This document shows positions 2,184 to 49,473 of a DNA stretch of 49,473 nucleotides, piece by piece. The position numbers and the translations under genes are program-made. A model generated the notes under the pieces. That model did no database searches. It had not been told where the DNA came from and was given only the letters and a program-made list of their open reading frames with translations. The first letter of the stretch is position 1, and every line of letters begins with the position of its first letter. The DNA is from Candidatus Krumholzibacteriota bacterium (GTDB lineage: Bacteria > Krumholzibacteriota > Krumholzibacteriia > Krumholzibacteriales > Krumholzibacteriaceae), in contig JAFGEZ010000021.1 in assembly GCA_016931295.1 (NCBI GenBank), positions 1 to 49,473 of the forward strand, read 5' to 3'.

Positions 2184-2459
2184 ACTGTTCCCCCTGCATG
2201 ACTGTTTAGTGTAGCAAGCAATTTAAAACAGATAATCTTACAATCTTCAATAGAATTTTCATCCCGTAGTATGACAGAAATTACATCAAACACCTTTGCT
2301 TGCCGTTCCATCCCTGACCTGCCAGGTGACTAAATCCCTTTCGGGGCAATCGAGTAGGGTGTCAACGTTCCCTTCATTCCTTTCTTCTCTCCTTATGCCG
2401 CGGCAAATTGTCCCTTTTCCCTTGCCCGCGGGCGTAACCCGTCTATATTCTTGATTACG

Positions 2460-5010: not shown

Positions 5011-5128
5011 CGCCCCGCCGCCGTCCGCTGCCGCGCCCCCGCGACGACCGAACTCACAGCCTGACAACAGGATAACCCACTCCCGCGCGCCTGGCCTCAT
5101 ATCTCGTTATATTGCAAGGCGTTACGAT

Positions 5129-5144
5129 TGGCACCATCGTTGCA
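5129..5144 (+). promoter_or_regulatory. Sigma-54 (RpoN) -24/-12 promoter, TGGCAC-catcg-TTGCA.
   Basis: This is an exact match to the TGGCAC-N5-TTGCA consensus, with GG-N10-GC spacing. It lies 166 nt upstream of the NuoE-like gene start at 5310 and just downstream of the NtrC-type activator gene. Confidence 0.6.
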
Positions 5145-5309
5145 GTCTCCCCATGCGGAGGCTGAACAGGATGACGCGAAACAACGACAACAGAATACAG
5201 GGATTCGAGTTACAGGGTACGGGGGCCGGCGGGGGACTGCGACGGAATGTCCCGGACCGGCCGACGGGGTGCGGCAATCCGCCGCGCCGTCACGGGAAGT
5301 GAGGTGACC

Positions 5310-5795
5310 ATGCATCCGGAAGCCGCAAGCGCACGAGAAATCACCGGGATCATCGGCGAGGTCCCCCGCGGGCGCCACGATCTCGTCATCCCGACGCTCC
5401 AGCGCGTCCAGGCGACGCTCGGGTACATCCCCGAGCAGGTCGTCTTCGACCTCGCCGAGCAGGTCGGCACGACGCCGGCCGCCGTCTTCGGCGTCGCCAC
5501 CTTCTACAACCAGTTCCGCCTGACCGCCCCCGGCGAGCACACGATCCGCGTCTGCCGCGGGACGGCCTGCCACGTGAAGGGCAGCGCCAGGATACTCGAC
5601 ACGATCTGCCGCGCGCTCGGCGTCGCATCGGGCGAGACGACACGCGACGGGCTCTTCACCGTCGAGGAGGTCGCCTGCCTCGGCTCCTGCTCGATCGCGC
5701 CGGCCGTGATGATCGACGACCGCTTCTACGGGCACGTGACGGCCGAGGGGCTCGTCGAGCTCGCCGAGGCGATCTCGCGCGGAGGTGACGCATGA
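5310..5795 (+). CDS. NuoE-like thioredoxin-fold [2Fe-2S] subunit of the bifurcating [FeFe] hydrogenase (HydC/HndA type).
   Basis: The Cys motif is CRGTACHVKG...CLGSCSIAP. The RBS GAGGTGA precedes the ATG at 5310 (the ORF-finder frame starts at 5247). The stop overlaps the next gene's start as ATGA. Confidence 0.8.
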   Translation: MHPEAASAREITGIIGEVPRGRHDLVIPTLQRVQATLGYIPEQVVFDLAEQVGTTPAAVFGVATFYNQFRLTAPGEHTIRVCRGTACHVKGSARILDTICRALGVASGETTRDGLFTVEEVACLGSCSIAPAVMIDDRFYGHVTAEGLVELAEAISRGGDA

Positions 5796-7738: not shown

Positions 7739-7754
7739 AAAGGCGGAGGACGCG

Positions 7755-9464: not shown

Positions 9465-9477
9465 GGAGGCCGGGGCG

Positions 9478-11496
9478 ATGAAAGGCGTCGTACACACGAT
9501 CGGCGAGAGATGCAAGCGGTGCTTCACCTGCGTCAGGGAGTGCCCGGCGCACGCCGTGCGCATCTCCGGCGGCCAGGCGGTGGTCCTCGAGGACCGTTGC
9601 CTGTCCTGCGGCCACTGCGTGAGCGTCTGCAGCCAGGGAGCCAAATCGGTCGAGGACGGCACCGCCCCGACGGCGGCCATGCTCGCCGACCCCGAGACGA
9701 AAACGATCGCGATCCTCGCCCCCTCCTTCCCCTCCTACGTCGATTGCGATCCCCCCGACCGTCTCGTCGGCGCGCTCCGCGCGCTCGGATTCGACGAGGT
9801 GATGGAGGTCGCCTTCGGAGCCGACATGGTCGCGGCCGAGTACGGGCGGATCTACGAGTCGTCCACGGGATCGCAGATCACCACCCCCTGCCCCTCGATC
9901 TACTTCTACGTGTGCAAGTACATGCCCGATCTCATCCCGCGGCTCTCGCCGGTCGTCTCGCCGATGATCGCCATGGCGCGCCTCATCAAGTGGCGCCTCG
10001 ATCCGGAGGCCAGGGTCGTCTTCATCGGCCCCTGCGTCGCCAAGAAGTCGGAGGCGGAGGATCCCTCGGTGGCGGGCGTCGTCGACGCGGTGCTCACCTT
10101 CCGCGAGCTGCGCGGCATGTTCGCCGACCGGGGCATCGACCCGGTGGCCTGCGAGCCGGCCGCGTTCGACGGCCCGGCGGCGTGGCGCGGGCGCCTCTTC
10201 CCCGTCTCGGGGGGGCTTCTCGTCTCCGCGGGGGTCGCCCGCGACCTCGAGGAGAACGAGGTGATCGTGGCCGAGGGGAAGAACCGGGCGATCCCGCTCC
10301 TCAAGAGCCTCGGCGAGGGCGTGATCGAACCGCGCTTCCTCGACATCCTCTTCTGCGAGGGCTGCGTGAACGGCCCCTTCTGCCGCGACCGCGAGGATAT
10401 CTTCAGGAACCGCGACAGCGTGCTGCGGTACTACCGCGAACACCGCGAACGCTTCGACGAGGACGCGTGGCGGCGGAACATGGCCGCGACCGCCGGCATC
10501 GACCTCGGCCGCTCTTTCGTGGCCGACACGCGCCGGCTGCCGATGCCCTCCGAGGAGCAGATCAACGAGCAGCTGCGGCGCATGGGCAAGACGGGACCGA
10601 AGGACGAGCTGAACTGCGGGGCCTGCGGCTACCGTTCCTGCCGCGAGCACGCCATCGACGTCCTCCGCGGGCTCGCCGAATCGGAGATGTGCCTCCCCTA
10701 CACGGTCGACCAGCTCGAGTCGACCCTCGGGCAGCTCGAGGAGAGCAACCGGCGGTTCCGCGACGCGCAGCAGCAGCTCATCCAGAACGAGAAGATGGCC
10801 GCGATGGGCCAGCTCGCCGCGGGCGTCGCGCACGAGGTGAACAACCCGCTCGGCACGGTCCTGCTCTACTCGCACATGATCCTCGAATCCCTCGAGGGGG
10901 AGGATCCCAACCGCGAGGACCTCTCGATCATCGTCCGCGAGACGGAGCGCTGCCGGCGGATCGTGGCCGACCTCCTCGATTTCGCCAGGCAGAACAAGCT
11001 CGTCCTCTCCAACGTCGACCTCGAGAGCTTCCTCCGGGATACGATCGAGCCGTCAGTGCGCGCGCCGGAGAACGCCGCCGTCCGGTTCGATTTCGAGACC
11101 GCCCCGATCCCGGAGATCGCCGTCGACGCCGACCAGGTCCGCCAGGTCGTCCTCAACGTCGTCCAGAACGCCCTCGAGGCGATGGAACGGCGCGGCCGGA
11201 TCGTCGTGCGGCTCTACCGCTCCCCCGACGGCGACCGGGCGGTCATCGAGATCGTGGACGACGGGCCGGGGATCCCCGAGAACGCGCTTTCGAGGATCTT
11301 CACCCCGTTCTTCACGACGAAACCGATCGGCAAGGGCACCGGACTCGGCCTCGCGATCGCCTACGGGATCGTGAAGCTCCACCGCGGCGACATCGCCGCG
11401 CGGAACGGAAACGCCGGGGGCGCGACGCTCCGGGTGGAGATCCCCTACGGTCTCGGCGAGACGGCGGCCGGGGAGGACACCTTCAATGACGGCTAG
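9478..11496 (+). CDS. Sensory (HydS-like, group C) [FeFe]-hydrogenase H-cluster domain fused to a histidine kinase (HisKA + HATPase_c).
   Basis: The N-terminus has 2x[4Fe-4S] ([23 protein letters not shown]). The H-domain has degenerate L1 TTPCPSIY, L2 GPCVAKKSE and L3 FCEGCVNG. An extra Cys cluster CGACGYRSC follows, then a coiled coil. The HisKA H-box is [12 protein letters not shown]. The ATPase N/G boxes are NALEAM, DDGPGI and [10 protein letters not shown]. The RBS is GAGGAGG. Confidence 0.8.
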
Positions 11497-11614
11497 AACG
11501 ACGGAGAACGCAGCACGACGCACTGCTGAACCGATGGGGACCCGCGCGGCGACTCGGGCCGGATGCCGCGCCGGGTTCCCCCCCACAACGGACCCGGCCC
11601 GAAGGAGACCTGTC

Positions 11615-12016
11615 ATGGCTAAGGTTCTGCTCGTCGACGACGATCCCGATTTCCGGGAAATGGGCACCGAAGTCCTCTCGGCGGCCGGCCACGAGGTCGT
11701 GACCGCGGCGTCCGGCAAGGAAGGATTCGAGGCGGCGCTCCGGGAGACGCCCGACGCGGCCGTCATCGACCTGATGATGGAGACGGTCGACGCCGGCGCC
11801 GTGCTCTGCCGCAAGCTGAAGAACGACGACCGGACGAAGTCGATCCCCCTGCTGATGCTCACCGCCGTCACCGAGGCCACCGGCTTCAAGTTCGGCATCG
11901 ACACCGAGGGGGAACGGGACTGGATCCTCGCCGACGAGTACGTCGACAAGCCGATCCCCTTCCCGGAACTCGTCAAGCGCGTCGGCAACCTCCTGGGCAA
12001 TGCAGCGCGCAGCTGA
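11615..12016 (+). CDS. Stand-alone CheY-like response-regulator receiver domain protein.
   Basis: The sequence reads KVLLVDDDPDF...D...LMLTA...K. The ATG at 11615 follows the RBS GAAGGAG. The ORF-finder frame starts earlier in Arg-rich sequence that is unlikely to be coding. Confidence 0.7.
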   Translation: MAKVLLVDDDPDFREMGTEVLSAAGHEVVTAASGKEGFEAALRETPDAAVIDLMMETVDAGAVLCRKLKNDDRTKSIPLLMLTAVTEATGFKFGIDTEGERDWILADEYVDKPIPFPELVKRVGNLLGNAARS

Positions 12017-13520
12017 GCATACGAGGGCCGTCCGCATCCTCGTCGTCGACGACGAATGGGGGATGCGGACCGGCGCGAAGCGGATCCTCGAGCGGGAAGG
12101 CTACGAGGTGGAGACGGCCGGGGACGGCGCCGGCGCCATCGCGCTGGCCACGCCGGCGCCGTTCGACGTCTGTCTCGTCGATCTCAAGCTCCCCGACGTC
12201 GACGGCCTCACCCTGCTCAAGGAGTTCCACGGGATCGACGCGAGCACGGTCTGCATCGTGATCACGGCCTACGCGAGCCTCGAGACGGCGATCGAGGCGA
12301 CGAGGCGGGGCGCGTGGGACTTCCTGCCGAAGCCCTTCACCCCGCAGGCGCTGCGGGCCGTCGTGGCCCGCGCCGCCGAGCGGCGTCTCCTCCTCGAGGA
12401 GGCCGACCGCCTGCGCCGCGAGCGCGAGGAGCGGCTGCTCGAGCTGGCCGGCGAGCGCAGCCGGACGAGCACGATCCTCTCCAACCTCACGACGGGCGTC
12501 GTCGTCGTCAACGAGGCGGGCGAGCTCGCCCTCTTCAACACGGCCGCCCTGAGCCTGCTCGCCGAGCCCGCGCTCGAGACGGGCGCGGGCTTCCTCGCCC
12601 AGCTGCCGGCCGGGGAGCTGCGCGAGGCGATCGCGCGGCTCCTCGACGGAACGATCGAGGAGGCGATCCACACGACGATCGAGGCCCCCGGCGTCGCCGA
12701 GGGGCAGACGCTCTCGGTGACCGCCGCCCCGGTCCCGGGGCCGAGGGGGGGCATCTCGGGGCGGACGATCAGCATCAGGGACGTCACCGACCGGGCCGAG
12801 CTCGACCGGGCGAAGTCGAACTTCGTCCGGATCGTCTCCCACGAGGTCAAGGCGCCCGTCGGCGCGGTCATCGGGTTCATCGACATGATCCTCGAGGGCT
12901 ACGCCGCCGACCCGGAAAAGCAGCGCGAGTACCTCGCGCGGGCACGCGGCCGCCTCGAGGGGCTCGTGACGATGGTCAAGGACCTTCTGGCGATGACCCG
13001 CCAGGAGACCCGGGGGGCCGGGCGGAGCTTCGAGCCGGTCGACCTGGTCGGACTCGTCCGGGAGACGGTCGCCTCGCTCGAGCCGGACTGGCGGGCGCGA
13101 TCGATCGCCGTCGAGGTGGCCGGCGACGGGGCGCCCCCCGTCGTCGGGGACGAGCCGGGGCTCGGGCAGGTGTTCACCAATCTCCTCTCGAACGCCATCA
13201 AGTACAACCGCCCCGGCGGCCGCGTCACGGTCTCGATGCGCGAATCGGGGGCCGGGGTGGAGACGACCGTGACCGACACGGGCGTCGGCATGGATCGGGA
13301 ATCGCTTGCGCGCATCTGGGAACCCTTTTATCGTATCAAGTCGGCCGAGACGAAGGACGTCCCCGGAACGGGGCTCGGACTCTCCATCGTGCGTGCGATC
13401 GTCGAGACGCACAAGGGCCGCATCGAAGTCACATCGTCACCCGGCGAAGGCACCACGTTCACCCTGTGGTTGCCGCGCGCGCCCGGCGGGGCGGACGGGG
13501 GACCGGAGAACGCCGCGTAA
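12000..13520 (+). CDS. Hybrid two-component protein with an N-terminal receiver, a PAS-like linker and a HisKA/HATPase_c histidine kinase.
   Basis: The receiver is ILVVDDEWGMR...DVCLVDLKLPDVDG...KPF. The H-box is RIVSHEVKAP. The N/G boxes are NLLSNAIKYN, DTGVGM and GTGLGLSIV. Confidence 0.75.
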   Translation: MQRAAEHTRAVRILVVDDEWGMRTGAKRILEREGYEVETAGDGAGAIALATPAPFDVCLVDLKLPDVDGLTLLKEFHGIDASTVCIVITAYASLETAIEATRRGAWDFLPKPFTPQALRAVVARAAERRLLLEEADRLRREREERLLELAGERSRTSTILSNLTTGVVVVNEAGELALFNTAALSLLAEPALETGAGFLAQLPAGELREAIARLLDGTIEEAIHTTIEAPGVAEGQTLSVTAAPVPGPRGGISGRTISIRDVTDRAELDRAKSNFVRIVSHEVKAPVGAVIGFIDMILEGYAADPEKQREYLARARGRLEGLVTMVKDLLAMTRQETRGAGRSFEPVDLVGLVRETVASLEPDWRARSIAVEVAGDGAPPVVGDEPGLGQVFTNLLSNAIKYNRPGGRVTVSMRESGAGVETTVTDTGVGMDRESLARIWEPFYRIKSAETKDVPGTGLGLSIVRAIVETHKGRIEVTSSPGEGTTFTLWLPRAPGGADGGPENAA

Positions 13521-13545
13521 AGCGGCGTGGGGAGGTGGATCGCCG

Positions 13546-14949
13546 ATGACCGGGTTCATCGACGTCGAACGGATCGAGTCGCTGCTCGCCGAGGGACGGC
13601 GTGCCGACCGGCAGACGGTCGAGGACGTGATCGAGCGCGCGGCCGAGAAGGAGGGGCTGACTCCCACGGAGACGGCAGTCCTGCTCGGCTGCGAGGACAC
13701 CGAGCTCTGGGAAGAGATCTACGCCCTCGCCCGGAAGATCAAGGAAGACATCTACGGGCGGCGGATCGTGCTCTTCGCCCCCCTCTACGTCTCGAACCTC
13801 TGCCAGAACGACTGCCTGTACTGCGCCTTCCGGCGGAGCAACGAGGAGTGCGCGCGCATCGCCCTCGGCCCCGAGGAGGTCGCCCGCGAGGTGCGCGCCC
13901 TCGAGAGCGTCGGGCACAAGCGGCTGCTCATGGTCTACGGCGAGCATCCCGCCTACGGCGTCGACTACATGGTCCAGACGATCCGCGCGGCCTACGAGAC
14001 CCGCACCCCGGACCGCCACGGGGAGATCCGCCGGATCAACGTGAACGCCGCCCCCCTGAGCGTCGAGGACTACCGGCGGCTCAAGGAGGCCGAGATCGGC
14101 ACCTTCCAGGTCTTCCAGGAGACCTACCACCCGGGCCGATACCGCGAGGTGCACCCGCCCAACACCCGCAAGGGGGATTTCGAGTGGCGGCTCTACGCGC
14201 TCCACCGCGCGCAGGAGGCCGGACTCGACGACGTCGCCGTCGGCGCCCTCTTCGGTCTCTACGACTGGCGCTTCGAGGTGATGGGCCTTCTCATGCACGC
14301 GCTCGACATGGAGCGCGTCTTCGGCGTCGGGCCGCACACGATCTCCTTCCCGCGGCTCGAGCCGGCGATCAACACGCCCTTCACCGGCTACTCGCGCTGG
14401 AAGACCTCCGACGAGGAGTTCAAGCGGCTCGTGGCCGTCTTGCGGCTCATGGTCCCCTACACCGGCCTGATCCTCACCGCGCGCGAGCGCCCCGAGCTCC
14501 GGCGCGAGTACATCCGCCTCGGCGTCTCGCAGATCGACGGCGGCACGCGGATCGACATCGGCGGCTACGGCAAGGGCCCCGCGACGGTCGAGACGGAGAA
14601 GGAGAAGCAGCAGTTCGAGATCTTCGACAACCGCTCGCTCGACGAGGTCGTGCTGGAGCTGGCGAAGACGGGCTACGTCCCCTCCTTCTGCACGGCATGC
14701 TACCGTTCGGCCCGCACCGGCGAGACCTTCATGGAATTCGCCAAGCACGGCGACATCAAGAACATGTGCCTGCCGAACGCGATTTTGACCTTCAAGGAGT
14801 ATCTCGAGGACTTCGCGTCGCCCGCAACGCGCCTCGTGGGCACGAAGCTCATCGAGGAACTGCTCAGGGGCACGGAGAACGGTCCGCGCTCGGCGCTGGA
14901 GAAGAAGATCGGCCGCATCGAGCGCGGCGAGCGCGACGTGTACTGCTAG
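13546..14949 (+). CDS. hydG: [FeFe]-hydrogenase maturase HydG (radical-SAM tyrosine lyase).
   Basis: The radical-SAM CxxxCxxC motif is CQNDCLYC. The C-terminal auxiliary-cluster motif is CTACYRS...NMC. The RBS GGGGAGG precedes the ATG at 13546. Confidence 0.85.
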   Translation: MTGFIDVERIESLLAEGRRADRQTVEDVIERAAEKEGLTPTETAVLLGCEDTELWEEIYALARKIKEDIYGRRIVLFAPLYVSNLCQNDCLYCAFRRSNEECARIALGPEEVAREVRALESVGHKRLLMVYGEHPAYGVDYMVQTIRAAYETRTPDRHGEIRRINVNAAPLSVEDYRRLKEAEIGTFQVFQETYHPGRYREVHPPNTRKGDFEWRLYALHRAQEAGLDDVAVGALFGLYDWRFEVMGLLMHALDMERVFGVGPHTISFPRLEPAINTPFTGYSRWKTSDEEFKRLVAVLRLMVPYTGLILTARERPELRREYIRLGVSQIDGGTRIDIGGYGKGPATVETEKEKQQFEIFDNRSLDEVVLELAKTGYVPSFCTACYRSARTGETFMEFAKHGDIKNMCLPNAILTFKEYLEDFASPATRLVGTKLIEELLRGTENGPRSALEKKIGRIERGERDVYC

Positions 14950-15932
14950 CGGCGCCTGATCCCCCCGCCGCGCCCGCGGCCGACCGAGAGCCCCAGCTCG
15001 TCGAGGGTCGCCGCGGTGCATTCGCGGCACGACTCGGTCGAGCCGCAGGCGGCCCGCTCGTAGATCTCGTACGCGGCCGCCGCCTCGCGCGGCGTGTAGT
15101 CGATCATGATGACGTTCGCCCCCGATCGCATCGCCCGCGCGCGGGCCTGCCGCCCGTAGACGCACATCGCCGTCGTCGAGGGCATGTGCGCCCCGGGTGC
15201 GACGAGCCGCCCGAGGGCGAGGACGCGCAGGACACGGTCGATGGGGGGCGGATCGAGATCGCCGAGGGGGGTTCCCGCCGCGGGGATCAGCGGCGAGACC
15301 GAGATCATGTCGTAGGGCGTTCGCGCCCAGTCGAGGATGTCGGCGGCGAGATGCTCCGCCGTCTGCCCGGGAAGCCCCACGATGTTCCCGCTCCCCGTCT
15401 CGTACCCGAGGGCGAGGAGGTCGTCGATGCAGCGGCGGCGGTTCTCCCAGCTCATCCCGGGGTGGAGCGTGCCGTAGAGCTCGCGGTCGGCCGCCTCGAG
15501 CTTGAGGAGATACCGGTCGGCGCCGGCCTCGCGCCACGCCCGGTAGACCTCCCGCGGCCATTCGCCCACCGAGAGGGTCACGGCGACGTCGAACCGCTCC
15601 TTGATCGCCGCGACCGTCTGTCCGAGGCCCTCGACGTCGAGACCGGGATGCTCCCCCGACTGCAGGACGATCGTGCGGAAGCCGTCCGCCGCGGCGCAAC
15701 CGGCCCGTTCGATCACCGTCTCCCAGGAAAGGTCGTAGCGGCTGACGAGATCGTTGTCGCAGCGCAGCCCGCAGTAGGCGCAGCGGCCGACGCAGCGGTT
15801 GGAGAACTCGACGATCGCGCGGAGGTGGACGACGTCGCCGTGGACGCGGCGGCGCTCGCGGTCGGCGCGGGCGCAGAGTCCGGCGGTCGCCTCAGCGTCG
15901 TCCAGGAGCCTGATGATCTCGCGCTCGTCCAT
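14946..15932 (-). CDS. hydE: [FeFe]-hydrogenase maturase HydE (radical SAM, BioB-like).
   Basis: The radical-SAM motif is CVGRCAYC, followed by a biotin-synthase-like TIM barrel of 328 aa. The gene converges on hydG with overlapping stop codons. Confidence 0.85.
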   Translation of the reverse strand: MDEREIIRLLDDAEATAGLCARADRERRRVHGDVVHLRAIVEFSNRCVGRCAYCGLRCDNDLVSRYDLSWETVIERAGCAAADGFRTIVLQSGEHPGLDVEGLGQTVAAIKERFDVAVTLSVGEWPREVYRAWREAGADRYLLKLEAADRELYGTLHPGMSWENRRRCIDDLLALGYETGSGNIVGLPGQTAEHLAADILDWARTPYDMISVSPLIPAAGTPLGDLDPPPIDRVLRVLALGRLVAPGAHMPSTTAMCVYGRQARARAMRSGANVIMIDYTPREAAAAYEIYERAACGSTESCRECTAATLDELGLSVGRGRGGGIRRR

Positions 15933-16046
15933 GGGGGGAATATAGCAGAATCGGCCCGCGCGGGCATGCCCCGTCTCGCGTTCCCCCCGCGCGGAATCAG
16001 CTCACGCGCCCCTCGCGGACGCCTTTCGCGGCCATCGCACGTCTTG

Positions 16047-23555: not shown

Positions 23556-24683
23556 CTATTCCCCGATCGTGGAGAGGACGTCGATCGTCTGGAGGACGTC
23601 GCGGCGGGTAACGATCCCGATGACGGCGCCGCGGTCGTCGACGACGGGAAGCCGGTCGCTCCCCCGGCGCATGACGAGCCCGACGAGGCGCTCGGCCGGA
23701 TCGAGCCGGTGGACGGCGCTCGGGGCGACGCTCCGGTTCATGATCTCCGCCGCCGTCGTTCCCGGCCACGATTCGCGCGGCACGCCCTTGAGATCGCCGA
23801 GGGTGACGATGCCGACGAGCAGGCCGTCCCGGACGACGGGGAAGGAGGAGGCGTGGTGCCGGAGAAAGAAGTCGTCGACCAGCGTCGCGAGATCCGTCGA
23901 GACGTCGACGGTGACATGGTCGTCCCGCATGAAGTCCGCCACCCGGAGACCCTGCAGCGACTCCTTGAACGCGACCATCACGTAGCCGCTCCGCGCGGCC
24001 TGGCGGAGAAAGAAGCCGATGAAGATGAGCCACATCCCGCCGATCAGCGAGCCGTACCAGGCGAAGGTGAACAAACCGAGCCCCATCAGCAGCAGGGCGA
24101 AGAACCCGCCGATCCGGGAGGCGATCCGCGTCGCGCGTTTCAGGTCGCCCGTCCTCCACCAGATGACCGAGCGGAGTATCCGGCCGCCGTCGAGCGGAAA
24201 CCCCGGCACGAGGTTGAAGACGAGCACGCCGAGGTTGACGTCCGCGAGCGACCGCGCGAGCACGGAGACGGCCGGCACGGCGTCCGCGACGAGCGAGATC
24301 CCGTAGAAGACGATCGCGAGCAGCAGGGTCATGAGCGGGCCGGCGGCGGCCATGCGCATCTCGAGGACCGGGTCGTCGACCTCGCGCTCCATCTGCGCCA
24401 CCCCGCCGAACATGAAGAGGGTGATGCGCCTGATCGGCAGCCCGGCGCGCACCGCGACGATGGAGTGGCTGAACTCGTGCAGGAGGATCGAGGTGAAGAG
24501 GAGGATCGCCGTGAAGAAACCCATCAGCCACCGGCCGGAAGGCGAGAAGAGGCCGGGGTAGTTCTCCGGGTAGTAGCCGTTGGCGAAGGTCCAGGTGATG
24601 AGACCGAGGATGAGGACCCAGCTGATGTTCAGTTCGACCGGGATCCCCCGTAGCGAGAAGAGCGTGACGTTTCTTCGCAGCAC
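23556..24683 (-). CDS. M50 (site-2 protease) family zinc metalloprotease with a C-terminal CBS-domain pair.
   Basis: HEFSHS is the HExxH motif. FNLVPGFPLDGGRIL is the second zinc/LDG motif. Tandem CBS-like repeats follow (VADFM...VVRDGLLVGIVT, VAPS...VVDDRGAVIGIVT). A GTG start at 24683 follows GGGGGAGG. Confidence 0.75.
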   Translation of the reverse strand: MLRRNVTLFSLRGIPVELNISWVLILGLITWTFANGYYPENYPGLFSPSGRWLMGFFTAILLFTSILLHEFSHSIVAVRAGLPIRRITLFMFGGVAQMEREVDDPVLEMRMAAAGPLMTLLLAIVFYGISLVADAVPAVSVLARSLADVNLGVLVFNLVPGFPLDGGRILRSVIWWRTGDLKRATRIASRIGGFFALLLMGLGLFTFAWYGSLIGGMWLIFIGFFLRQAARSGYVMVAFKESLQGLRVADFMRDDHVTVDVSTDLATLVDDFFLRHHASSFPVVRDGLLVGIVTLGDLKGVPRESWPGTTAAEIMNRSVAPSAVHRLDPAERLVGLVMRRGSDRLPVVDDRGAVIGIVTRRDVLQTIDVLSTIGE

Positions 24684-24714
24684 CGGTCTTCCTCCCCCGC
24701 CCGGAAGGGACGGA

Positions 24715-25074
24715 TCACACCGCTCCGGATCCGGCGTACCGCACGAACCGGTTGCCTTCGTCGACGTCGATGAACAGGGGATCGACCTCTCCCGACGACC
24801 AGGTGAAGGCCATGATATCGACGCGGTCGCCCTCGGTGACGAGATGCGCCGCTGCGCCGTTGATACAGACGACACCGCTCCCGCGCTCGCCCCGTATGAC
24901 GTAGGTCTGCAGGCGGTTGCCGTTCGTGCGGTCGACGACGAGGACGTTCTCGTGCTCGCTGAGATCCGCCTTCTCGATGAGATCCTCGTCGATCGTGATC
25001 GAGCCGACGTACCGCAGGTCGGCCTGCGTCACGGTGGCCCGGAGGATCATCGATTTCAGCATCATCCGTTTCAT
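24715..25074 (-). CDS. panD: Aspartate 1-decarboxylase (PanD) homolog, divergent at K9 and H11.
   Basis: The 119-aa product reads [24 protein letters not shown]|SITIDED...[27 protein letters not shown]. It keeps the Gly-Ser self-cleavage site, R54, T57 and Y58. The position normally occupied by KSKIH reads KSMIL. Confidence 0.8.
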
Positions 25075-25159: not shown

Positions 25160-26881
25160 CTAGAGCTTCATGCCGGGTTTCTCGGTGAGATGCCTGACGA
25201 AGCGGTTCTTTTCGTCGACGAGGATGTTGCTGAATGAATGGTCGCTCCCGTCGGACCACGCGAAGGCCATGATCCCGATCTCGTCCCCCGCGCGCACGTG
25301 CCTCGACACGGCTCCCCCCGCGGCGATCACGCCGCTCCCGGGCTTTCCGCGGACGGCGAAGGTCTCGATCCGCGAGCCGTTCGTCGCGTCGACGATCAGC
25401 ACCTTTTCCATCGGGGCGATGTCGCCGTAATCCATGAGCTCGCCGTCGATGACGAGGCAGTCGATCTCCTCCGGCCGCTCCTCGGTCACCCACGCCTTGT
25501 GGATTTTCGATTTGACCACGAGGCGCTCCTCGATCCTCGAGACGATGAACTTCGACTTGCCCGCCGGCGTGCGGGGGATGTCGTCGACGATCGAGAAGTT
25601 GACGCGGAAATCCGCGCCGATCTCCTTCCGGATCCTGTCCCGCAGCATCTCCTTGTGTTCGTCGCGCCAGCCGGGCCCGGGGACGATCCGGAAGGTGATC
25701 CCCGCGCGGTCGCGCTGGTCGATCTGGAAGCGGTCGATCCCCGGCACGTATCGCGACAGCCAGGACCAGAAGAAGCCGCCGATCGACCTGCCGTCGGCGG
25801 TGACGACGGTGTCGTAGGTGCGCCCCTCGATCCGCTCCAGGAGAGGCAGCCCGCGTCCGCAGGGGCAGCTCCGCTCGGTGGGGACGGCGAGATCCCCCGT
25901 CCGGTAGCGGATGAAGGGCATGTAGTAGTCCAGCAGGTCGGTGACGACGATCTCTCCCACCTCCCCGCTCTGCGCCGGCCGTCCGCTCTCGTGGATGATC
26001 TCGACGTGGAAGAGATCGCTGAAGACGTGCAGCCCCTTGTGCTCCTCGCACTCCTGGGCGACGTTCGAGAATTCCCTGATCCCGTAGCGGTCGAAGACGG
26101 GAGCGCGGCACACGTCCTCGATGGCCGCCTTCTGCTCGGGGTAGAGGCGCTCGCCGCTCGTCACGACGGCGCGGGGGGCCGGAACGTGCAGGAGGCCCCG
26201 CTTGCAGAAGTCGGCGAAGAGGGCGAGGGCCGACGGATACCCGACGACGAGATGCGGCCGGAACCGGCGCAGGAGCCGGGCGTAGCGGCGCATCGAGTCG
26301 GGCGACATGTCGAGGCTCGAGAGGAAGAGGACGTTGTTGAACCAGTTCCTCATGCCCTCGGCGAACCGCTCGCGGGAGGAGACGTCGAGGCGCCGTCCCC
26401 AGAGGACCGCGTGGCGGTCGCCGATGTCGACGCCCGCCCACCGGTAGCCGCGCAGGGTGTTCGCACGGCGCACGGGGCCGGCGGCGCGGTCTCGCCAGAA
26501 GAACATCGGCTCGCCCGTCGAACCGCCCGTGCTCGAGGGATAGCCCCGCCGGTACGGATCCTCGGTGACGAGGCGGCGTTTCTCGCGGCGGACGATCTCC
26601 CTGTCGAGGAAGGGCAGTCGGGCGAAGTCGCCGAGGGACTGGATGCCTCCCGGCGCGATCCCGTTCTCGCGGAAAAGGTCGCGGTAGTAGGGAACGTGGA
26701 TCGATGCCTTCTCGAGGAGCGCGGCGAGCTTCCGCCAGCGGATCTCGTCGAGCTCCTCGCGCGGCAGCCACTGCGAACGCTCCAGCTCGCGCAGCCGGTC
26801 GAGGACGCGGTCGCCGCGGATGCCGCGGTAGAGCGGATAGACGACGTTCCTCACGAATGACGGATGAAGATGCGGCAGCAT
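25160..26881 (-). CDS. PaaK-type (phenylacetate-CoA ligase / F390-synthetase family) adenylate-forming enzyme fused to a C-terminal PanD-like domain.
   Basis: The N-terminal ~450 aa carry the ANL P-loop [10 protein letters not shown] and a PaaK-like core. The C-terminal 117 aa (nt 25163-25513) align to PanD: [10 protein letters not shown]...[27 protein letters not shown]...[11 protein letters not shown]. The Gly-Ser site is replaced by Asp-Cys and Y58 by Phe. The RBS is GGGGGAG. Confidence 0.75.
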
Positions 26882-43185: not shown

Positions 43186-44391
43186 TTACGGAATCATGCC
43201 GGCGAATCCGGCCCCGTGCAGGGCGAGTTCGGCGGGAAGAGACGGAACCGCACCGATCCGTCGATCGTCGGCCGCGTTCGTCACGCCGCCTTCGCCGCCG
43301 GCCGCGCCGGAAACCCCGGCGACCATGCCCGCCGTCTCGAGCAGCGCGATGGAGGGCTCGAGACGCTGGAGCAGATCGCGGCGCGTCCGCGCGGCGTAAT
43401 CGTGTTTCCCGCACCGCTCTCCCATCTCGATAACCCGGCAGGCGTAGGCCGGGCGCGAGGGATCGAGGACGGCCGCAGCCCGGGCGAGCTGGAAGGGAAT
43501 CTCCCGCATCCCCTTCCCTGCCGCGGCCGCCGCCCCCGCGTCCAGCGCTCCGGCGACGACGGAGGCATCGAAGGTGAAAGCCATGAGCGCGAGAGCCGCG
43601 ACCAGGGCCAGCGAGACGGCGTTTCCGCGCGGAACATCGTTCCTCCGCGGACCGGCGAGACGTATCCCGTCGAGCGCCTGGACGACCCAGGCGACAACTC
43701 CCGCCGCGGCGACGGCAGCGGCGGCGATGAGGAACCGCTCGAGGAATCCTGCATCGACGCCGTACGGGCCGGCGAAGGCGTTCAGATCCCAGAGCAGGCC
43801 GGCCTTCGTAAGCGTCACGGCCGCGATGCCAGCCAGGCAGACGACCCAGAGCGCGGCGGCGGCCCTCGCGTGATGTCCGGAGACGAAGAGTCCCATCCCC
43901 GGAAACACCGACCCGATCAATCCCGCGGCGGCGCGCGATCTCAGCCATCCCGGCGACCGGCGCATCCTCCGCGCCTCCTCCCTCCCGGCGAGCACGATCC
44001 CCCTCGTCCACGCGAGGCAGCAGGAAACGGCGGCCGCGGCGGCGGCCGCGATCATCGCGACCGCGGCGGGGAACCCGATCTCCGGCCACGGGATGCGCGT
44101 CCACAGCACCGCCGTCGCGGTCGCCGAACCCGCTCCCAGCAGGGCGATCGCCATCCAGGCGCGGCTGCGGCGCCCGGCGGATGTCGCCAGGATCGAGAAG
44201 GGTCCCGCCATGCAGGACAGGATCGCCGGCACGCCGGACGCGCGTTCCGCGCGGGCGCCGGGCGCGCCGCTCCTGTTTTCTCGCGCCGTGGCGGACCGCA
44301 GGTATGCGGGCAGATCCTTCGCGACGTTCCGCGACGAGCCGGCGTCGCCGCGCACGGGATCGATGACATACACCTTCTGCCGACCGCTCAT
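43186..44391 (-). CDS. Hypothetical Ala-rich polytopic membrane protein with about 6 TM helices.
   Basis: This is the only frame in the region with hydrophobic helices (AVAMIAAAAAAAVSCCLAW, ALWVVCLAGIAAVTLT, AVSLALVAALALMAFTF). The alternative frames are Arg-rich. I recognised no family. Confidence 0.35.
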   Translation of the reverse strand: MSGRQKVYVIDPVRGDAGSSRNVAKDLPAYLRSATARENRSGAPGARAERASGVPAILSCMAGPFSILATSAGRRSRAWMAIALLGAGSATATAVLWTRIPWPEIGFPAAVAMIAAAAAAAVSCCLAWTRGIVLAGREEARRMRRSPGWLRSRAAAGLIGSVFPGMGLFVSGHHARAAAALWVVCLAGIAAVTLTKAGLLWDLNAFAGPYGVDAGFLERFLIAAAAVAAAGVVAWVVQALDGIRLAGPRRNDVPRGNAVSLALVAALALMAFTFDASVVAGALDAGAAAAAGKGMREIPFQLARAAAVLDPSRPAYACRVIEMGERCGKHDYAARTRRDLLQRLEPSIALLETAGMVAGVSGAAGGEGGVTNAADDRRIGAVPSLPAELALHGAGFAGMIP

Positions 44392-44584
44392 CTCTTCTCC
44401 TTCCGTCGAGGCGGCCGCTCACCCTGCCGGGCGGTCGTCATGTCGGGATACGCTGCGGGCCGAGCGCTGACGCACGGTGATTTCGGCAATAATCGTACCG
44501 GGGACATCCGGGCGCCGGGCGGCGTCCGGACGACGGGCCATCATGGAGACGCCGGGGACGGCGCAGGGAATCGGGAGACGCGAC

Positions 44585-44608
44585 GGAAACCGGACTTTTC
44601 CGGTTTCC
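44585..44608. promoter_or_regulatory. Perfect 10-bp inverted repeat GGAAACCGGA-CTTT-TCCGGTTTCC in the long divergent intergenic region.
   Basis: Read directly from the sequence. It lies ~350 nt upstream of the sigma-54 promoter at 44944, so it is a candidate enhancer or regulator site or an RNA hairpin. Confidence 0.3.
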
Positions 44609-44943
44609 GCCCCATGCGGCCTCGCGGCGCCGCCAGGACGGGGACGGTTCGTGATGCAACGCCGCATTGCACCGCGTCACGCGGGATTGTCAGCGAGCGT
44701 CCAACCCGCTCGGCGGGATCTTCCACCTCTCCTGCAGTTCCGGGCGTCGCGCGAAACGATCGTACCCGGCGTCGCCCGCCGACCCGAAGTGGCTTAAATC
44801 CGCCGGGCAGGGCCCGGAACGGATCGGCCGCGGAGACAAAAACGATCGCCCCGCGCGGCGAAGCGCACCCGCCAGATCCCCTAACTGCCTCCCATGAAAC
44901 AGATTGCCCATCCAATCCTCTTCGGCGCACCCGAACGCTCCGC

Positions 44944-44959
44944 TGGCACTTCCCTTGCA
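44944..44959 (+). promoter_or_regulatory. Sigma-54 -24/-12 promoter, TGGCAC-ttccc-TTGCA.
   Basis: An exact consensus match, 116 nt upstream of the ATG of the YdjI-like SPFH gene at 45075. Confidence 0.55.
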
Positions 44960-45074
44960 CATCACCTGGATCGGACCGGTTTGCGCGCGCGGTGCGCGCG
45001 CGGCGCCGGCGCATCGACGGCCGATACAACGAACGCACATATCGACACTGGGCCCCAGACGACGGGAGACCGCA

Positions 45075-46223
45075 ATGAGCCAGTTCATGGAAGTCCTCGA
45101 GTGGTTCGACCAGACCGGCGAGGAGATCGTCCACCGCCTCCCCCCCGAGGGATCGGCCGAGATCAAGATGGGCGCGCAGCTCATCGTGCGCGACAACCAG
45201 ACGGCCGTCTTCTTCAAGGACGGCAAGGGGCTCGACGTCTTCGGCGCGGGGCGGCACACGCTCTCGACGAAGAACCTGCCGATCCTCACGAAGATCCTCG
45301 CCCTCCCCTGGGGCTTCACGAGCCCCTTCCGGGCCGAGGTCTACTTCGCCAACATGAAGACCTTCCTCGACCAGAAGTGGGGCACGAAGGACCCGGTGGC
45401 ATTCAAGGACAGCCGCCTCGGCCTCGTCCGGCTGCGCGCCTTCGGCCGCTACACCTTCCGGATCGCCGAGCCGGTGCTCTTCGTCAACTCGGTCGTCGGC
45501 ACGCAGGGCTTCTACACGAGCGAGATGATCGGCGAGTACCTGCGCGACGTCGTCGTCGCCCGGATGAACGACCTCTTCGGCGAGCAGCTCGACACGATCT
45601 TCGACCTGCCGCAACGCTACGACGAGCTGGCCGTGCAGCTGCGCGGGCGTCTCGTCGACGACTTCTCCCGCTACGGTCTCGAGCTGCGCGACTTCTACAT
45701 CAGCGCGATCACGCCGCCCCCCGAGGTGCAGACGATGATCGACGAGCGGAGCGGCCTCGAGGCGGTCGGCAACCTCGACGACTTCTTCAAGTTCAAGGCG
45801 GCCAAGGCGATGGGAGACGCCGCCTCCTCCGGCGGCGGCGGCGCGGCGGGCGCCGCGGCGGCATCCGGCATGGGGGTCGGCGTGGGGGCCGGTCTCGGGA
45901 TGATGATCCCCGGGATGCTCGCCCGCCAGGCGGCGGAAGCCCCGGCGGGGGGCGCGGCGACGGCCGTGGCGACCTTCGCCTGCCCGAAGTGCCACAACGA
46001 GGTCGGGGCCGAGTCGCGCTTCTGCCCGAGTTGCGGGGCGCAACTGGTCAGGATGAATACCTGTCCCGACTGCGACGCCGAGCTTCCCGCCGATGCGCGC
46101 TTCTGCTCGCGGTGCGGACGCGAACTCGCCGCGACGCTCGCCTGCCCGCACTGCGGCCGCGATCTGCCGCCGGGCACGAAGTTCTGCACGGGCTGCGGCG
46201 AGAAGGTGGAGCGAAAGGAATAG
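45075..46223 (+). CDS. YdjI-like SPFH-related protein with a Gly-rich linker and C-terminal tandem zinc ribbons.
   Basis: The N-terminus [51 protein letters not shown] resembles Bacillus subtilis YdjI as I recall it. The C-terminus has CPKC..CPSC, CPDC..CSRC and CPHC..CTGC. The RBS is GGGAGA. Confidence 0.65.
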
Positions 46224-46230
46224 GGACGCG

Positions 46231-46941
46231 ATGAACGTCCGGTGCCGCCTCTGCGGCGGCGACAACACGGTCCGGCCGGGGCAGCGGATGGTGACGTGCG
46301 CCTTCTGCGGCTCGGCCCTCGCCCTCGGGGAGAAGGAAGGTCCCGAACAGCTCATCCTCCCCCACGAGCGCACGGACCGGGGCGCAACCGAGGCCCTCGT
46401 CTCCCACCTCGCCGAGCGCGGCCTCGCCCTGCCGCGGGGGATTCCCGAGGTCTCCTTCGCCTACGTCCCCTACGCGATGGCGACGGGCGAGAGGGGCACG
46501 ATGGAAACGACGGCGATCGCCGCCGCCCCGCGCGCGGCGCGCTCTATCCCCTGGCCCCCCGCCGGCGCCTGGCGCTTCTTCGACGAAGCCCTCGCCGGCG
46601 GCGAGGAGATCGTCCCGGCCGGCGAAATCCCCGGCGATGCCATCCGCCTGCTCTGGCTTCCCCTCTACACCGTGCGCTACCGTGCGGCCGGGAAGACGCG
46701 CACGGCGGCGATTTTCGGCGACAGCTGGCTCGTCCTCGCGACCGACTGGCCCCCCGGGCGGCCGCAAACGCTCGACACGCGGAACGTCCTTCTCGCCGCC
46801 GGGCTCTTCGTCGCCTACCTCTTCATCGGCAGACTCGGCGCCGGGCTCCCGGCGCGGCTTGTCGTCATCGCGTCCGCCGCGACGACGGGCTGGCTCGCCC
46901 TCGCCGCGCGGCGGCGTCTCGCGGGACGGTCGAACGGATGA
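46231..46941 (+). CDS. Zinc-ribbon membrane protein (YdjG-like partner 1).
   Basis: The N-terminus has CRLC-x14-CAFC and there is a C-terminal TM helix. Its stop overlaps the next start (ATGA). Confidence 0.55.
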   Translation: MNVRCRLCGGDNTVRPGQRMVTCAFCGSALALGEKEGPEQLILPHERTDRGATEALVSHLAERGLALPRGIPEVSFAYVPYAMATGERGTMETTAIAAAPRAARSIPWPPAGAWRFFDEALAGGEEIVPAGEIPGDAIRLLWLPLYTVRYRAAGKTRTAAIFGDSWLVLATDWPPGRPQTLDTRNVLLAAGLFVAYLFIGRLGAGLPARLVVIASAATTGWLALAARRRLAGRSNG

Positions 46942-48002
46942 GCGTGGAAACGATCGAACGAACGGACAACCCGGCGAACGAGCCCGGGAAGGGCGCGCCG
47001 GAGCGGGGCGCCGCCGACCAGGCAAAGCCGGTGGAGACGTACGGCGTCGCCTGCCCCGCCTGCGGCGGGTCGCTCGGCGTGCAGGAGGGGGAACGGAGCG
47101 TTTGCTGCGAGTACTGCGGCTCCGCCCTCGTCGTCGTGGATCCGGCCGGCGTGCGCTCCTTCGCGATGGACCCGCGGATCACGGCCGGCAAGGCACGGCT
47201 CACCGCGCTGCATCACCTCGCCGAAGAGACCGGCGGGCGGATCCGGGCGCGGCACGCCTCGATCGTCGACCTCCGCCTCGTCCACGTCCCCTTCTGGCGG
47301 ATGCACGGGCGTCTCGTCGGCTGGCTCGCCGGCAACGAGATCCATCGACGCCAGGTGGAGGTCCTTCGCCCCGACGGGCACGGGGGCGAGCGCCTCGTCA
47401 TGACGACGAACGAGGAACGCCGGCCCTTCGCGAAGCTCGTCTTCAAGCACATCGACTGGAGCGCCCCCGCCTGCTCGCTCAGGAGGCTCGGCCTGCGGGG
47501 GATCGCGTTCCGCTCGCGCTTCATCCGGTGGCGTCCTTTCGACCACCGGCTCGGCGACGAGGGATCCTTCGCCTTCCCGATGATCTCCCCCGGACAGGCC
47601 GAGCGGGACGCCTTCGCCTACCTGACGAACCTCTGCGCGCCCACCGGGGCCGAGGTGCGGGCGAGCCGGTTCGACCTGCTCGGCAGCGAGTTCTCGCTCT
47701 ACTACTACCCGGTCTACCTGCTCCGCTACCGCCACGGGCGGCGCATCTACACGATCACCGTCGACGGCAACGACGGCTCGGTCCTTCGCGGCGAGACGCC
47801 GCCGCGAAGGCAAGCCGACCTCAGGACCTTCTTTTTCGTGCCCGCCCTCTTCGCCTTGCTCGCCGGCCTGTGGCTTCCGGCGGTGGCGATCGCGGCGGGG
47901 ATCGTCTATGTACGCGACCTCGTGCAGGCCCGCGGGATGATGCCGCCGCACCGCTGGCTCGCGGCGCGTCTCGACCGCTGGTTCGGAGGTGAGTTGAGAT
48001 GA
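46938..48002 (+). CDS. Zinc-ribbon membrane protein (partner 2).
   Basis: The motif is CPAC-x14-CEYC and there is a C-terminal TM (FFFVPALFALLAGLWLPAVAIAAGIVYV). The start and stop are translationally coupled to the flanking genes. Confidence 0.55.
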   Translation: MSVETIERTDNPANEPGKGAPERGAADQAKPVETYGVACPACGGSLGVQEGERSVCCEYCGSALVVVDPAGVRSFAMDPRITAGKARLTALHHLAEETGGRIRARHASIVDLRLVHVPFWRMHGRLVGWLAGNEIHRRQVEVLRPDGHGGERLVMTTNEERRPFAKLVFKHIDWSAPACSLRRLGLRGIAFRSRFIRWRPFDHRLGDEGSFAFPMISPGQAERDAFAYLTNLCAPTGAEVRASRFDLLGSEFSLYYYPVYLLRYRHGRRIYTITVDGNDGSVLRGETPPRRQADLRTFFFVPALFALLAGLWLPAVAIAAGIVYVRDLVQARGMMPPHRWLAARLDRWFGGELR

Positions 48003-48718
48003 CCGGCGGCTACCGCGTCCTGCCCCTCCGCTGCGCCCACTGCGGGGCCGAGCTTCCCGTCATGGGGCCGATCGTCGCGTTCCGGTGCGCGAGCTGCAAC
48101 CGGTACTGGCTCCTCGGCCGGAACGGCCTCGAGGCCGCCACCGTCTACCGCGCCCGCGCCGCCGGCGACGATGCGGAGGAGACGCTCTTGCTGCCCTTCT
48201 GGGCCGTCGAGATCGACGCGCCCCGCCTTCGGGCCCTGGCCGGCGGGGCCGTAGCCGACGCCGGCGTGACCGCGCCGGCCGCCGCCGTCGAGCGCCTCCT
48301 CGCGCGGATCGAGGAAGCGGGCCGCTGGTTTGTCTACGTGCCCGCCTTCCACGCTCCCAATCCGAACGCCTGCCTGGCGCTCGGGCGTCTCTTCACACGC
48401 GGCCAGCCCGCCGCGCGCATGGAGAAGGCCGGCGGCGGCGGTCGACCCGTCCTCTGCGCCCTGCGGGCCGACGAGGCCCTCGCCCTCGTCGACTACGTCT
48501 TCCTCGCGCACCTGCCCTCGGCGATCCTCGAGATCGCCCACCTCGCAGGCCGACTCCACGCGGAGCCGGCGGCGGCGCCGTGGCTCGTCGAGTACCCCTT
48601 CGTTTGCCGGGGCCACGACCTCGTGAGCCTCGCCGGCGGATACGTCGTGCCGGTCGCCCTCGTCGCCCCGCCCGGCACGGCCGCTACGGCGCCGATTGCC
48701 GCTCCCGCGGGGAGATGA
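47999..48718 (+). CDS. Zinc-ribbon protein (partner 3).
   Basis: The motif is CAHC-x14-CASC. The start ATGA overlaps the previous stop. Confidence 0.5.
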   Translation: MTGGYRVLPLRCAHCGAELPVMGPIVAFRCASCNRYWLLGRNGLEAATVYRARAAGDDAEETLLLPFWAVEIDAPRLRALAGGAVADAGVTAPAAAVERLLARIEEAGRWFVYVPAFHAPNPNACLALGRLFTRGQPAARMEKAGGGGRPVLCALRADEALALVDYVFLAHLPSAILEIAHLAGRLHAEPAAAPWLVEYPFVCRGHDLVSLAGGYVVPVALVAPPGTAATAPIAAPAGR

Positions 48719-48958
48719 CTGCCGCGGCGCGCCCCCCCGCACGCCGTCTGCGCCTCGACGGCGCCGCGGCACGACCGGGCGGCGCCGGGGCGCGCGGTTG
48801 TGCAGACTTTCGACGACCTTCCCGGCTTCCCGAACCTTCTTGCCCGCCGGGCGCAAACCTGTCATAGTCCCGTCAAGGCCACCGTCGGGAGCATCGACGG
48901 ACACGGAAGATCGACCCGTCCGGCGCCGCCGGACACGAGACACGGGAGGACCATCGTG

Positions 48959-49473
48959 ATGAAGAGAATCGTTGTCACCGCCGCGCTCTGCCTGCTGCTC
49001 GCCGCGCCCGCGGCTGCCCAGTCCGTCCTCGACGACATCGACTGGTCGGTCGACGCGGGCATCGCCATGCCGACCGGCGATTTCGGCAAGGCGGCGAACA
49101 CCGGCTTCTGCTTCGGGGTGAACGGCTTCTGGTCGTACACCGAGCGGCTGCTCTTCGGCGGCCGGATCGCGTACGACCGGTGGGGCGTCGACGAGGACAT
49201 GGGCGGCAGGGGCTGGGACGTCGAGGGGCACTTCTCGGCGATCGAGATCGTCCCCCAGGTGCGCTACCTCTTCACCGACGACGCCACGCAGCGCGCCAAC
49301 TTCTTCGGCCAGGCGGGGATCGGCTTCTACCGCTTCGCGTTCGACCTCGAGTACGACTCCGACCTCACCGACGACACCTGGGACAGCGACGACGCCGAGA
49401 TCGACCTCGGGATCGCCCTCGGCGGCGGCGTGACGATCGACACGGCGGGCGGGCGCTCCTTCGAGATCCGCCC
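48959..49473 (+). CDS. Outer-membrane beta-barrel protein, 3'-truncated by the window edge.
   Basis: The signal peptide is MKRIVVTAALCLLLAAPAAAQS. Beta-strand patterns follow. The RBS GGGAGG is present. There is no stop before position 49473. Confidence 0.5.
   Translation, partial: MKRIVVTAALCLLLAAPAAAQSVLDDIDWSVDAGIAMPTGDFGKAANTGFCFGVNGFWSYTERLLFGGRIAYDRWGVDEDMGGRGWDVEGHFSAIEIVPQVRYLFTDDATQRANFFGQAGIGFYRFAFDLEYDSDLTDDTWDSDDAEIDLGIALGGGVTIDTAGGRSFEIR

Follow-up and report, generated by a model that had tools for sequence, protein, structure and literature searches.

The window analyzed here, a 49,473-bp stretch of Candidatus Krumholzibacteriota DNA (contig JAFGEZ010000021.1; G+C content 68%), carries four adjacent genes encoding zinc-ribbon proteins, which we call P1 to P4 (Table 1). 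We consider it probable that these genes constitute an operon under sigma-54 control and encode a relative of the Bacillus subtilis YdjGHI/SamGHI module that lacks PspA, in which a soluble SPFH protein of the YdjI/SamI type (P1) is produced together with YdjG/SamG-type partners. By analogy with the B. subtilis proteins, the module may function in membrane stress. A preliminary description of this DNA had proposed such a variant, a YdjI-type module with zinc-ribbon partners under sigma-54 control, and our analysis supports it: the arrangement is conserved in related loci, and it does without PspA.

For comparison, we used a set of 67 loci encoding relatives of P1. Thirty-two of these, from Krumholzibacteriota, Latescibacterota, UBP1 and unclassified relatives, are referred to below as the clade, and 34 loci come from other phyla.

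Four coupled genes behind a conserved, predicted sigma-54 promoter

A -24/-12 promoter precedes P1 to P4, which are tightly coupled to one another. P1 and P2 are separated by 7 nt, and ATGA start/stop overlaps join P2 to P3 (46938-46941) and P3 to P4 (47999-48002); these overlaps, which the preliminary description had placed at 46938 and 47999 in a four-gene operon, are real and can be read directly from the sequence. The G+C content at third codon positions (0.9-1.0) tracks the reading frames of P1 to P4, with the frame switching exactly at the gene borders, and the order P1-P2-P3-P4 is kept in about 30 clade loci. Coding periodicity is absent from 44440-44920, so that some 680 nt of non-coding DNA precede P1. 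The intergenic region upstream of P1 (44392-45074) is unusually long, and it contains a perfect inverted repeat of 11 nt at 44584-44609.

The exact TGGCAC-N5-TTGCA element that had been described ahead of the four genes is indeed present on the forward strand (Table 1), with its GG at 44945-44946 and its GC at 44957-44958. With at most 1 mismatch allowed, the window contains 2 matches to this element, compared with 0.14 expected; the other match, at 5129, lies directly after an NtrC-type activator gene. Among the clade loci, the motif TGGCA[CT]-N5-TTGC[AT] is found in 31 of 32 cases, at a distance of 65-218 nt upstream from the start of P1, the five spacer bases and the flanks of these sites vary freely, and no further copy of the motif occurs on either strand of the 329 kb that the clade loci comprise. 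The combination of near-complete conservation and zero background argues that the site at 44944 is under selection as a sigma-54 promoter. The sole exception, locus L048, has the same two boxes with a 6-nt spacer. Frameshift-like breaks also interrupt the P2 and P3 reading frames of this locus (5700-9709), and assembly indel errors are a more likely cause of its oddities than real divergence. Outside the clade, no sigma-54 motif was found upstream of P1, even with up to 2 mismatches, which suggests that sigma-54 control is specific to the lineage of Krumholzibacteriota, Latescibacterota and UBP1.

To judge from its DNA, the host organism appears to be one that uses sigma-54: a gene for an NtrC-type response regulator with a GSFTGA motif is present in the window (3649-5010; Sigma54_activat, E=2e-70), and the site at 5129 is a second exact promoter. 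This regulator is the only sigma-54 activator in the window and lies 40 kb from the operon, beside a hydrogenase operon. With the promoter kept in nearly all clade loci, background matches lacking and a sigma-54 activator in the same window, the predicted sigma-54 control of the operon, as first proposed, is strongly supported. A scan for sigma-70 promoters and terminators found no sigma-70-like site, and its terminator-like matches were at background level only. Within the predicted leader, a tandem CGGT(T/G)(T/C)GCGCGCG repeat occupies 44977-45002 and a GGGAGA ribosome-binding site lies before P1 at 45063-45068; an Rfam scan of 44300-49473 found nothing relevant.

In four Desulfobacterota loci (L044, at about 4300-5900, L045, L051 and L054), a sigma-54 activator gene on the minus strand is divergent from P1. 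The strict sigma-54 sites of three of these loci (L044, L045 and L051) likewise lie on the minus strand; they come downstream of the activator gene and are directed toward other genes. Since these sites lie on the opposite strand, the activators of the three loci probably serve those genes and not P1.

Table 1. Predicted features of the P1-P4 operon, in window coordinates
Feature	Position	Strand	Length	Description
Predicted sigma-54 (-24/-12) promoter TGGCACTTCCCTTGCA	44944-44959	+		Exact TGGCAC-N5-TTGCA, ~115 nt upstream of P1
Predicted 5' leader	44970-45074	+	~105 nt	Transcription start near 44970 predicted from the promoter
P1	45075-46223	+	382 aa	Soluble YdjI/SamI-type SPFH protein
P2	46231-46941	+	236 aa	Short YdjG/SamG-like paralogue
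P3	46938-48002	+	354 aa	Long YdjG/SamG-like paralogue
P4	47999-48718	+	239 aa	Soluble, fast-evolving zinc-ribbon protein

P1 is a YdjI-type SPFH protein with three zinc ribbons

The SPFH region of P1 belongs to the Pfam family Band_7_1 (PF13421), which it matches over residues 26-228 (45150-45758) with E=4.6e-63 and 213 bits, compared with a cut-off of 24; Band_7 (PF01145) is matched as well (E=1.8e-10). It is followed by a linker rich in glycine, alanine and methionine (residues ~240-300; 45792-45974) and by six CxxC pairs that make up three four-cysteine zinc ribbons (residues 303-374; 45981-46196), where the Pfam families DZR/Zn_Ribbon_1 match three times. P1 has no transmembrane (TM) segment, as no 19-residue window reaches a Kyte-Doolittle value of 1.6.

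For comparison with the Firmicute proteins, a B. subtilis-type pspA-ydjG-ydjH-ydjI locus was fetched from metagenome contigs by means of a degenerate published ydjG primer sequence, which had no match among viral contigs. In the retrieved locus, YdjI consists of Band_7_1 (E=8e-43) and one ribbon, YdjH is a TPM-domain protein and YdjG begins with TFIIB-type ribbons. P1 aligns with B. subtilis YdjI collinearly from end to end (BLASTP, E=5e-31, 26% identity), the alignment pairing P1 residues 2-325 with YdjI residues 6-323 and spanning the linker and the first ribbon. P1 is therefore a soluble SPFH protein of the YdjI type that ends in three zinc ribbons, in agreement with the preliminary description, which had matched the first product to the YdjI-type SPFH-related protein and given it a Gly-rich linker and three ribbons.

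An exact-sequence look-up of P1 on public contigs returned no record; the proteins P0001 and P0121 are 100% identical to P1 and P3, respectively. P1 is unusually conserved: clade members are 73-80% identical to it, and its relatives in Desulfobacterota and Nitrospirota about 50%; within the clade, the corresponding values are 37-50% for P2, 42-63% for P3 and 27-44% for P4. A linker motif, GxGxGLGMMxPGM, is seen again in orthologues of P1 from distant phyla (L036 and L055), and YdjI of B. subtilis has a Met/Gly-rich counterpart. The P1 linker may be a membrane-interacting or oligomerization segment instead of a passive connection.

Matches to P1 on plasmids are restricted to the SPFH domain. 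The Band_7_1 proteins of proteobacterial megaplasmids and chromids end differently (one plasmid match is H5, NZ_CP083452.1, 161485-162177), and one such protein carries the annotation 'SPFH and helix-turn-helix domain-containing protein'. These other C-terminal ends indicate that, in other lineages, Band_7_1 is combined with different modules at the C-terminus.

SPFH and zinc-ribbon proteins also occur in some defense systems, and a P1 homologue bears the name 'virion core protein (lumpy skin disease virus)' in one source, both of which would accord with an anti-phage or abortive-infection system composed of an SPFH protein and zinc-ribbon sensors. We nevertheless regard such a function as highly improbable. 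P1 to P4 match no PADLOC model at E<=0.01, just one of 50,697 phage records contains a (weak) match to P1, and no nuclease, protease, TIR or pore effector domain was found. Moreover, the vertical conservation of the genes, their stable order, their partly stable neighbors and the high identity of P1 are unlike what is seen in fast-turnover defense islands.

P2 and P3 are YdjG-type partners

P2, P3 and P4 each begin with one CxxC-x(14-15)-CxxC ribbon. In P2, which directly follows P1 in clade loci (at 28% identity in L022, below the range given above), the ribbon cysteines are C5, C8, C23 and C26, and a PepSY-like region leads to a hydrophobic anchor in the C-terminal part of the protein (residues 185-206; 46783-46848). 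In P3, the ribbon (C39, C42, C57 and C60) is invariant in 43 sequences. After it come two PepSY/cystatin-like units of helix and sheet, with a long inserted beta-hairpin, and then a hydrophobic segment in the C-terminal part (residues 297-326; 47826-47915). P2 and P3 are paralogous over their whole length (BLASTP, E=2e-8), P3 having an insertion of about 80 residues relative to P2, and alignment of the two families with hhalign gave a probability of 98.8% (E=7e-17). The preliminary description had placed C-terminal TM helices in two of the three partners, which agrees with the segments of P2 and P3 and with the lack of one in P4; its further claim that all three are paralogues is strongly borne out for P2 and P3 and only weakly for P4, for which the hhalign probability is about 60%.

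P2 to P4 have no curated Pfam or NCBIfam family and gave sub-threshold zinc-ribbon matches only. A PDB sequence search with P1 and the P3 profile returned zinc-ribbon fragments of PolD and RpoP only. A P3-family profile searched against 1.84 billion representatives matched 1709 proteins at E<=1e-3, among them two clear homologues of YdjG, P0326 (E=3.9e-16; phmmer match to YdjG, E=9e-62) and P0350 (E=6.4e-15; phmmer, E=1.4e-60). Through this transitive link, together with a fold match, the P3 family can be considered homologous to YdjG; the link supersedes an hhalign comparison of the P3 family with a single YdjG sequence, for which the probability was only 44%. Direct comparisons with YdjG are weak yet collinear, running from the ribbon through an IPFW motif to the C-terminal hairpin, and hidden Markov model (HMM) searches against YdjG gave E=2e-6 for P2, E=4e-6 for P3 and E=1.2e-8 for P4 in a one-target search space. 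The YpeB-related (PepSY/NTF2-like) domain that characterizes the YdjG/SamG family is present after the ribbon in P2 and P3.

P2 and P3 are accordingly of the YdjG type, with a ribbon and PepSY-like domains ahead of a sole, C-terminal hydrophobic segment. Because these domains precede the only hydrophobic segment, we infer that P2 and P3 are tail-anchored proteins whose ribbon and PepSY-like domains lie in the cytoplasm.

As an alternative, P2 to P4 could bind nucleic acid and have a role in transcription or translation. Some homologues of P3 go by the name 'RNA polymerase subunit RPC12/RpoP' at JGI, and there are weak matches to the ribbons of TFIIB and RpoP. However, the matches to TFIIB and RpoP span only the 25-residue ribbon and fall below family thresholds, and the remainder of P3 is PepSY-like with a membrane anchor, so that we give this explanation almost no credence.

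P4 is a diverged partner that is fused to P3 in other phyla

P4 carries its ribbon at C12, C15, C30 and C33, followed by an LPFW motif. It has no TM segment, and in this it departs from the YdjG/SamG family, in which such a segment is found at the C-terminus. Its similarity to P2 and P3 in hhalign is confined to the ribbon and the PFW motif, and a search for P4 homologues returned 2 matches only. P4 is nonetheless kept after P3 in clade loci, and we assign it as a diverged, soluble and weakly related member of the P2/P3 set. An AlphaFold2 model of P4, built from a three-sequence alignment, had a predicted local distance difference test (pLDDT) score of 42, and was discarded as unusable.

The P4 HMM matches fused representatives with E-values down to 5e-23, the matches lying in the C-terminal halves of proteins whose N-terminal halves are P3-like. 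Genes of the P3/P4 type directly follow P1 in 33 of the 34 non-clade loci (from Desulfobacterota, Nitrospirota, Methylomirabilota and others), and in 30 of the 34 a single open reading frame (ORF) after P1 matches both the P3 and the P4 HMM, encoding a fused protein of about 425 residues (for example, L036 at 7082-8359 and L055 at ~7080-8341). L032 and L037 have three separate genes, like the window. The pattern of fusion suggests that P3 and P4 act together and predicts a physical interaction between them. Since P3/P4-type genes follow P1 in such distant loci, the association of P1 with ribbon partners appears to be conserved across at least six phyla.

A pairing of one P1 ribbon with each partner was also considered and rejected, as the two-ribbon P1 of the clade members L029 and L031 is still accompanied by P2, P3 and P4, and the three-ribbon P1 of Desulfobacterota has a single fused partner.

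Comparison with known systems

A close counterpart is the B. subtilis pspA-ydjGHI (pspA-samGHI) operon, in which YdjG and YdjH are required for bringing soluble YdjI, and via YdjI also PspA, to the membrane (PMC8581546). P1 resembles YdjI in its Band_7_1 domain, in a low-complexity linker rich in glycine and methionine, in a C-terminal ribbon and in being soluble; P2 and P3 resemble YdjG, with which they belong to one superfamily, in the N-terminal four-cysteine ribbon, the YpeB/PepSY-like domain that is cytoplasmic (as predicted for P2 and P3) and the C-terminal anchor; and in both cases the genes are co-operonic. The two operons nevertheless differ considerably. The operon in the window has neither pspA nor the TPM-domain gene ydjH/samH, it has three YdjG-like genes with one ribbon each where B. 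subtilis has a single YdjG with two ribbons, its SPFH gene comes first and encodes three ribbons instead of one, and its promoter is of the sigma-54 type, whereas that of B. subtilis is recognized by the extracytoplasmic function sigma factor sigma-W (PMC8581546). In addition, B. subtilis is a Firmicute, whereas the window, from Krumholzibacteriota, contains outer-membrane beta-barrel genes.

With the Escherichia coli psp operon, the likeness is confined to regulatory logic: both have a sigma-54 promoter, but the proteins are unrelated, PspA, PspB, PspC and PspF were not detected in the operon, the window or the 67 loci, and the link to membrane stress runs only through the B. subtilis homologues. 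HflK/C-FtsH, QmcA-YbbJ and the flotillins FloA/FloT have the SPFH-superfamily domain in common with P1, from which oligomeric membrane scaffolding would be expected of P1 too; unlike them, P1 belongs to a separate Band_7_1 family, has no TM segment or hairpin, carries zinc ribbons, and has no NfeD or protease partner in its operon. Finally, the two-gene modules of Desulfobacterota, Nitrospirota and Methylomirabilota also pair a three-ribbon P1 orthologue (~50-63% identity) with P3-/P4-like modules, but there the partners are usually fused, those that we read are tail-less, and there is neither an equivalent of P2 nor a sigma-54 promoter.

Proposed mechanism

Taken together, we propose that an enhancer-binding protein encoded elsewhere switches the sigma-54 promoter on, in response to a signal that is probably envelope or membrane stress, and that the four proteins are then made in a coupled fashion. 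Tail-anchored P2 and P3, with soluble P4, would dock oligomeric P1 on the inner membrane from its cytoplasmic side, with protein-protein contacts made through the ribbons and PepSY-like domains. The resulting assembly could organize or stabilize membrane regions, or it could restrain a membrane-associated signaling complex. The tethering of P1 is proposed by analogy with the recruitment of YdjI by YdjG and YdjH in B. subtilis.

A number of observations weigh against this proposal. Searches of the window and of all 67 loci with PspA and YdjH of B. subtilis as queries gave no match (tblastn, E<=0.1), and because YdjH contacts both YdjI and PspA in B. subtilis, the mechanism described there is not simply transferable. 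The direct scores of P2, P3 and P4 against YdjG are low, at 12-21 bits. The partners of Desulfobacterota and Nitrospirota that we read (in L036, L055 and P0262) end without a hydrophobic tail, so that the role conserved among such partners may be something other than membrane tethering. With regard to regulation, no activator of the GAFTGA/ESELFG type is encoded within 6 kb of the operon in any of the 32 clade loci, and a shared upstream activator site was not found, no k-mer being common to most of the 33 upstream regions; in the window, the inverted repeats upstream of the operon are local ones only.

The lack of PspA in the window, which had been noted at the outset, was thus upheld; in line with it, Pfam scans of 31 window ORFs found no PspA or TPM domain, and no PspF-like activator is linked to the module in the 67 loci. 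The earlier label of a Psp-like membrane-stress module therefore stands only in part: the homology of the proteins to YdjI and YdjG is sound, but the stress label comes by analogy, as neither PspA nor PspF is linked to P1 in any of these loci.

A different division of labor has been proposed for the B. subtilis proteins, in which SamI (YdjI) restrains signaling by SamGH independently of PspA (bioRxiv 10.64898/2026.02.06.704340). Translated to the present operon, P2 to P4 would form a membrane signaling complex that is held in check by P1, and P1 might feed back on the sigma-54 activator as PspA does on PspF. Loss of SamI is reported to lead to constitutive, SamGH-dependent stress signaling that does not depend on PspA (bioRxiv 10.64898/2026.02.06.704340), which fits an operon that is itself PspA-less, and strict sigma-54 control would suit a feedback-regulated stress circuit. 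We still think it unlikely that P1 acts in this way, given that SamH, the TPM signaling component in B. subtilis, is not present here, that no output domain (kinase, helix-turn-helix or cyclase) was found in P1 to P4, and that no activator is linked to the operon.

Neighboring genes

Downstream of P4, about 12 clade loci have a gene for a PAP2-family lipid phosphatase on the same strand, directly adjacent in 8 of them (loci with this gene include L007, 9639-10346; L013, 7008-7940; L017, 9762-10583; L018, 9850-10704; and L026, 9687-10604). In the window, its position is taken by an outer-membrane beta-barrel-like gene without a Pfam match (48959 onward). The upstream neighbors in relatives (L001, 167-3192; L003, 582-1730) are an M50-CBS protease, a protein of ~590 residues with an Asp_decarbox-like domain, and polysaccharide deacetylases. 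The window has its M50-CBS gene at 23556-24875 and its Asp_decarbox-domain gene at 25160-26881, 18-20 kb away from the operon, with peptidase genes, including M1, C25 and M16, in between.

SPFH proteins commonly enclose client proteins, and the recurrence of these neighbors could be taken to mean that P1 forms a cage regulating a membrane enzyme or protease, as in HflK/C-FtsH or QmcA-YbbJ, with the PAP2 phosphatase or the M50-CBS protease, an enzyme of the site-2 type, as the client. This seems quite improbable to us, since the window and roughly half of the loci have no PAP2 gene downstream, the M50-CBS gene of the window is on the other strand and 20 kb off, no NfeD-type partner is present, and P1 has no TM segment.

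The second exact sigma-54 promoter of the window, TGGCACCATCGTTGCA (5129-5144), lies between the NtrC-type regulator gene and an [FeFe]-hydrogenase operon encoding a NuoE-like 2Fe-2S protein (5247-5795), a NuoF-like protein (5792-7738) and a HydA-type hydrogenase (7755-9464). Next come genes for a histidine kinase with a fused hydrogenase-like domain (9478-11496), for a receiver protein and for a hybrid kinase, and the operon is flanked by HydF (2451-3686) and by radical-SAM genes (13306-14949 and 14946-15932) that are possible maturases. From its gene content, the region 2451-16000 looks like a hydrogen-sensing, sigma-54-controlled hydrogenase locus.

Implications

The YdjGHI/SamGHI proteins have been studied only in B. 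subtilis, where they are tied to PspA and sigma-W. What is new here is a relative of this module that has neither PspA nor YdjH, three partners of the YdjG type, and sigma-54 control. The pairing of YdjI-type with YdjG-type proteins reaches Krumholzibacteriota, Latescibacterota, UBP1, Methylomirabilota, Nitrospirota, Desulfobacterota and CSSED10-310, which broadens a recently characterized Firmicute system to many phyla without overturning the current understanding of it. The practical impact is limited, since the function is predicted from homology and the host belongs to an uncultured clade. The conserved sigma-54 promoter, from which little basal activity is expected, does offer a handle for seeking the cognate activator and its signal.

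Since PspA and the TPM partner are unlinked in these lineages, the conserved core would seem to be the SPFH-YdjG pair. We tentatively suggest, as a possibility of rather low probability, that the SPFH (Band_7_1)-zinc-ribbon protein and its YdjG-like partners represent an ancient, self-sufficient sub-membrane system without PspA or TPM, to which pspA and ydjH were added later in Firmicutes, and which in the clade described here has become part of a dedicated stress circuit of sigma-54 and its activator. If so, P1 might restrain the activator of that circuit, as PspA restrains PspF.

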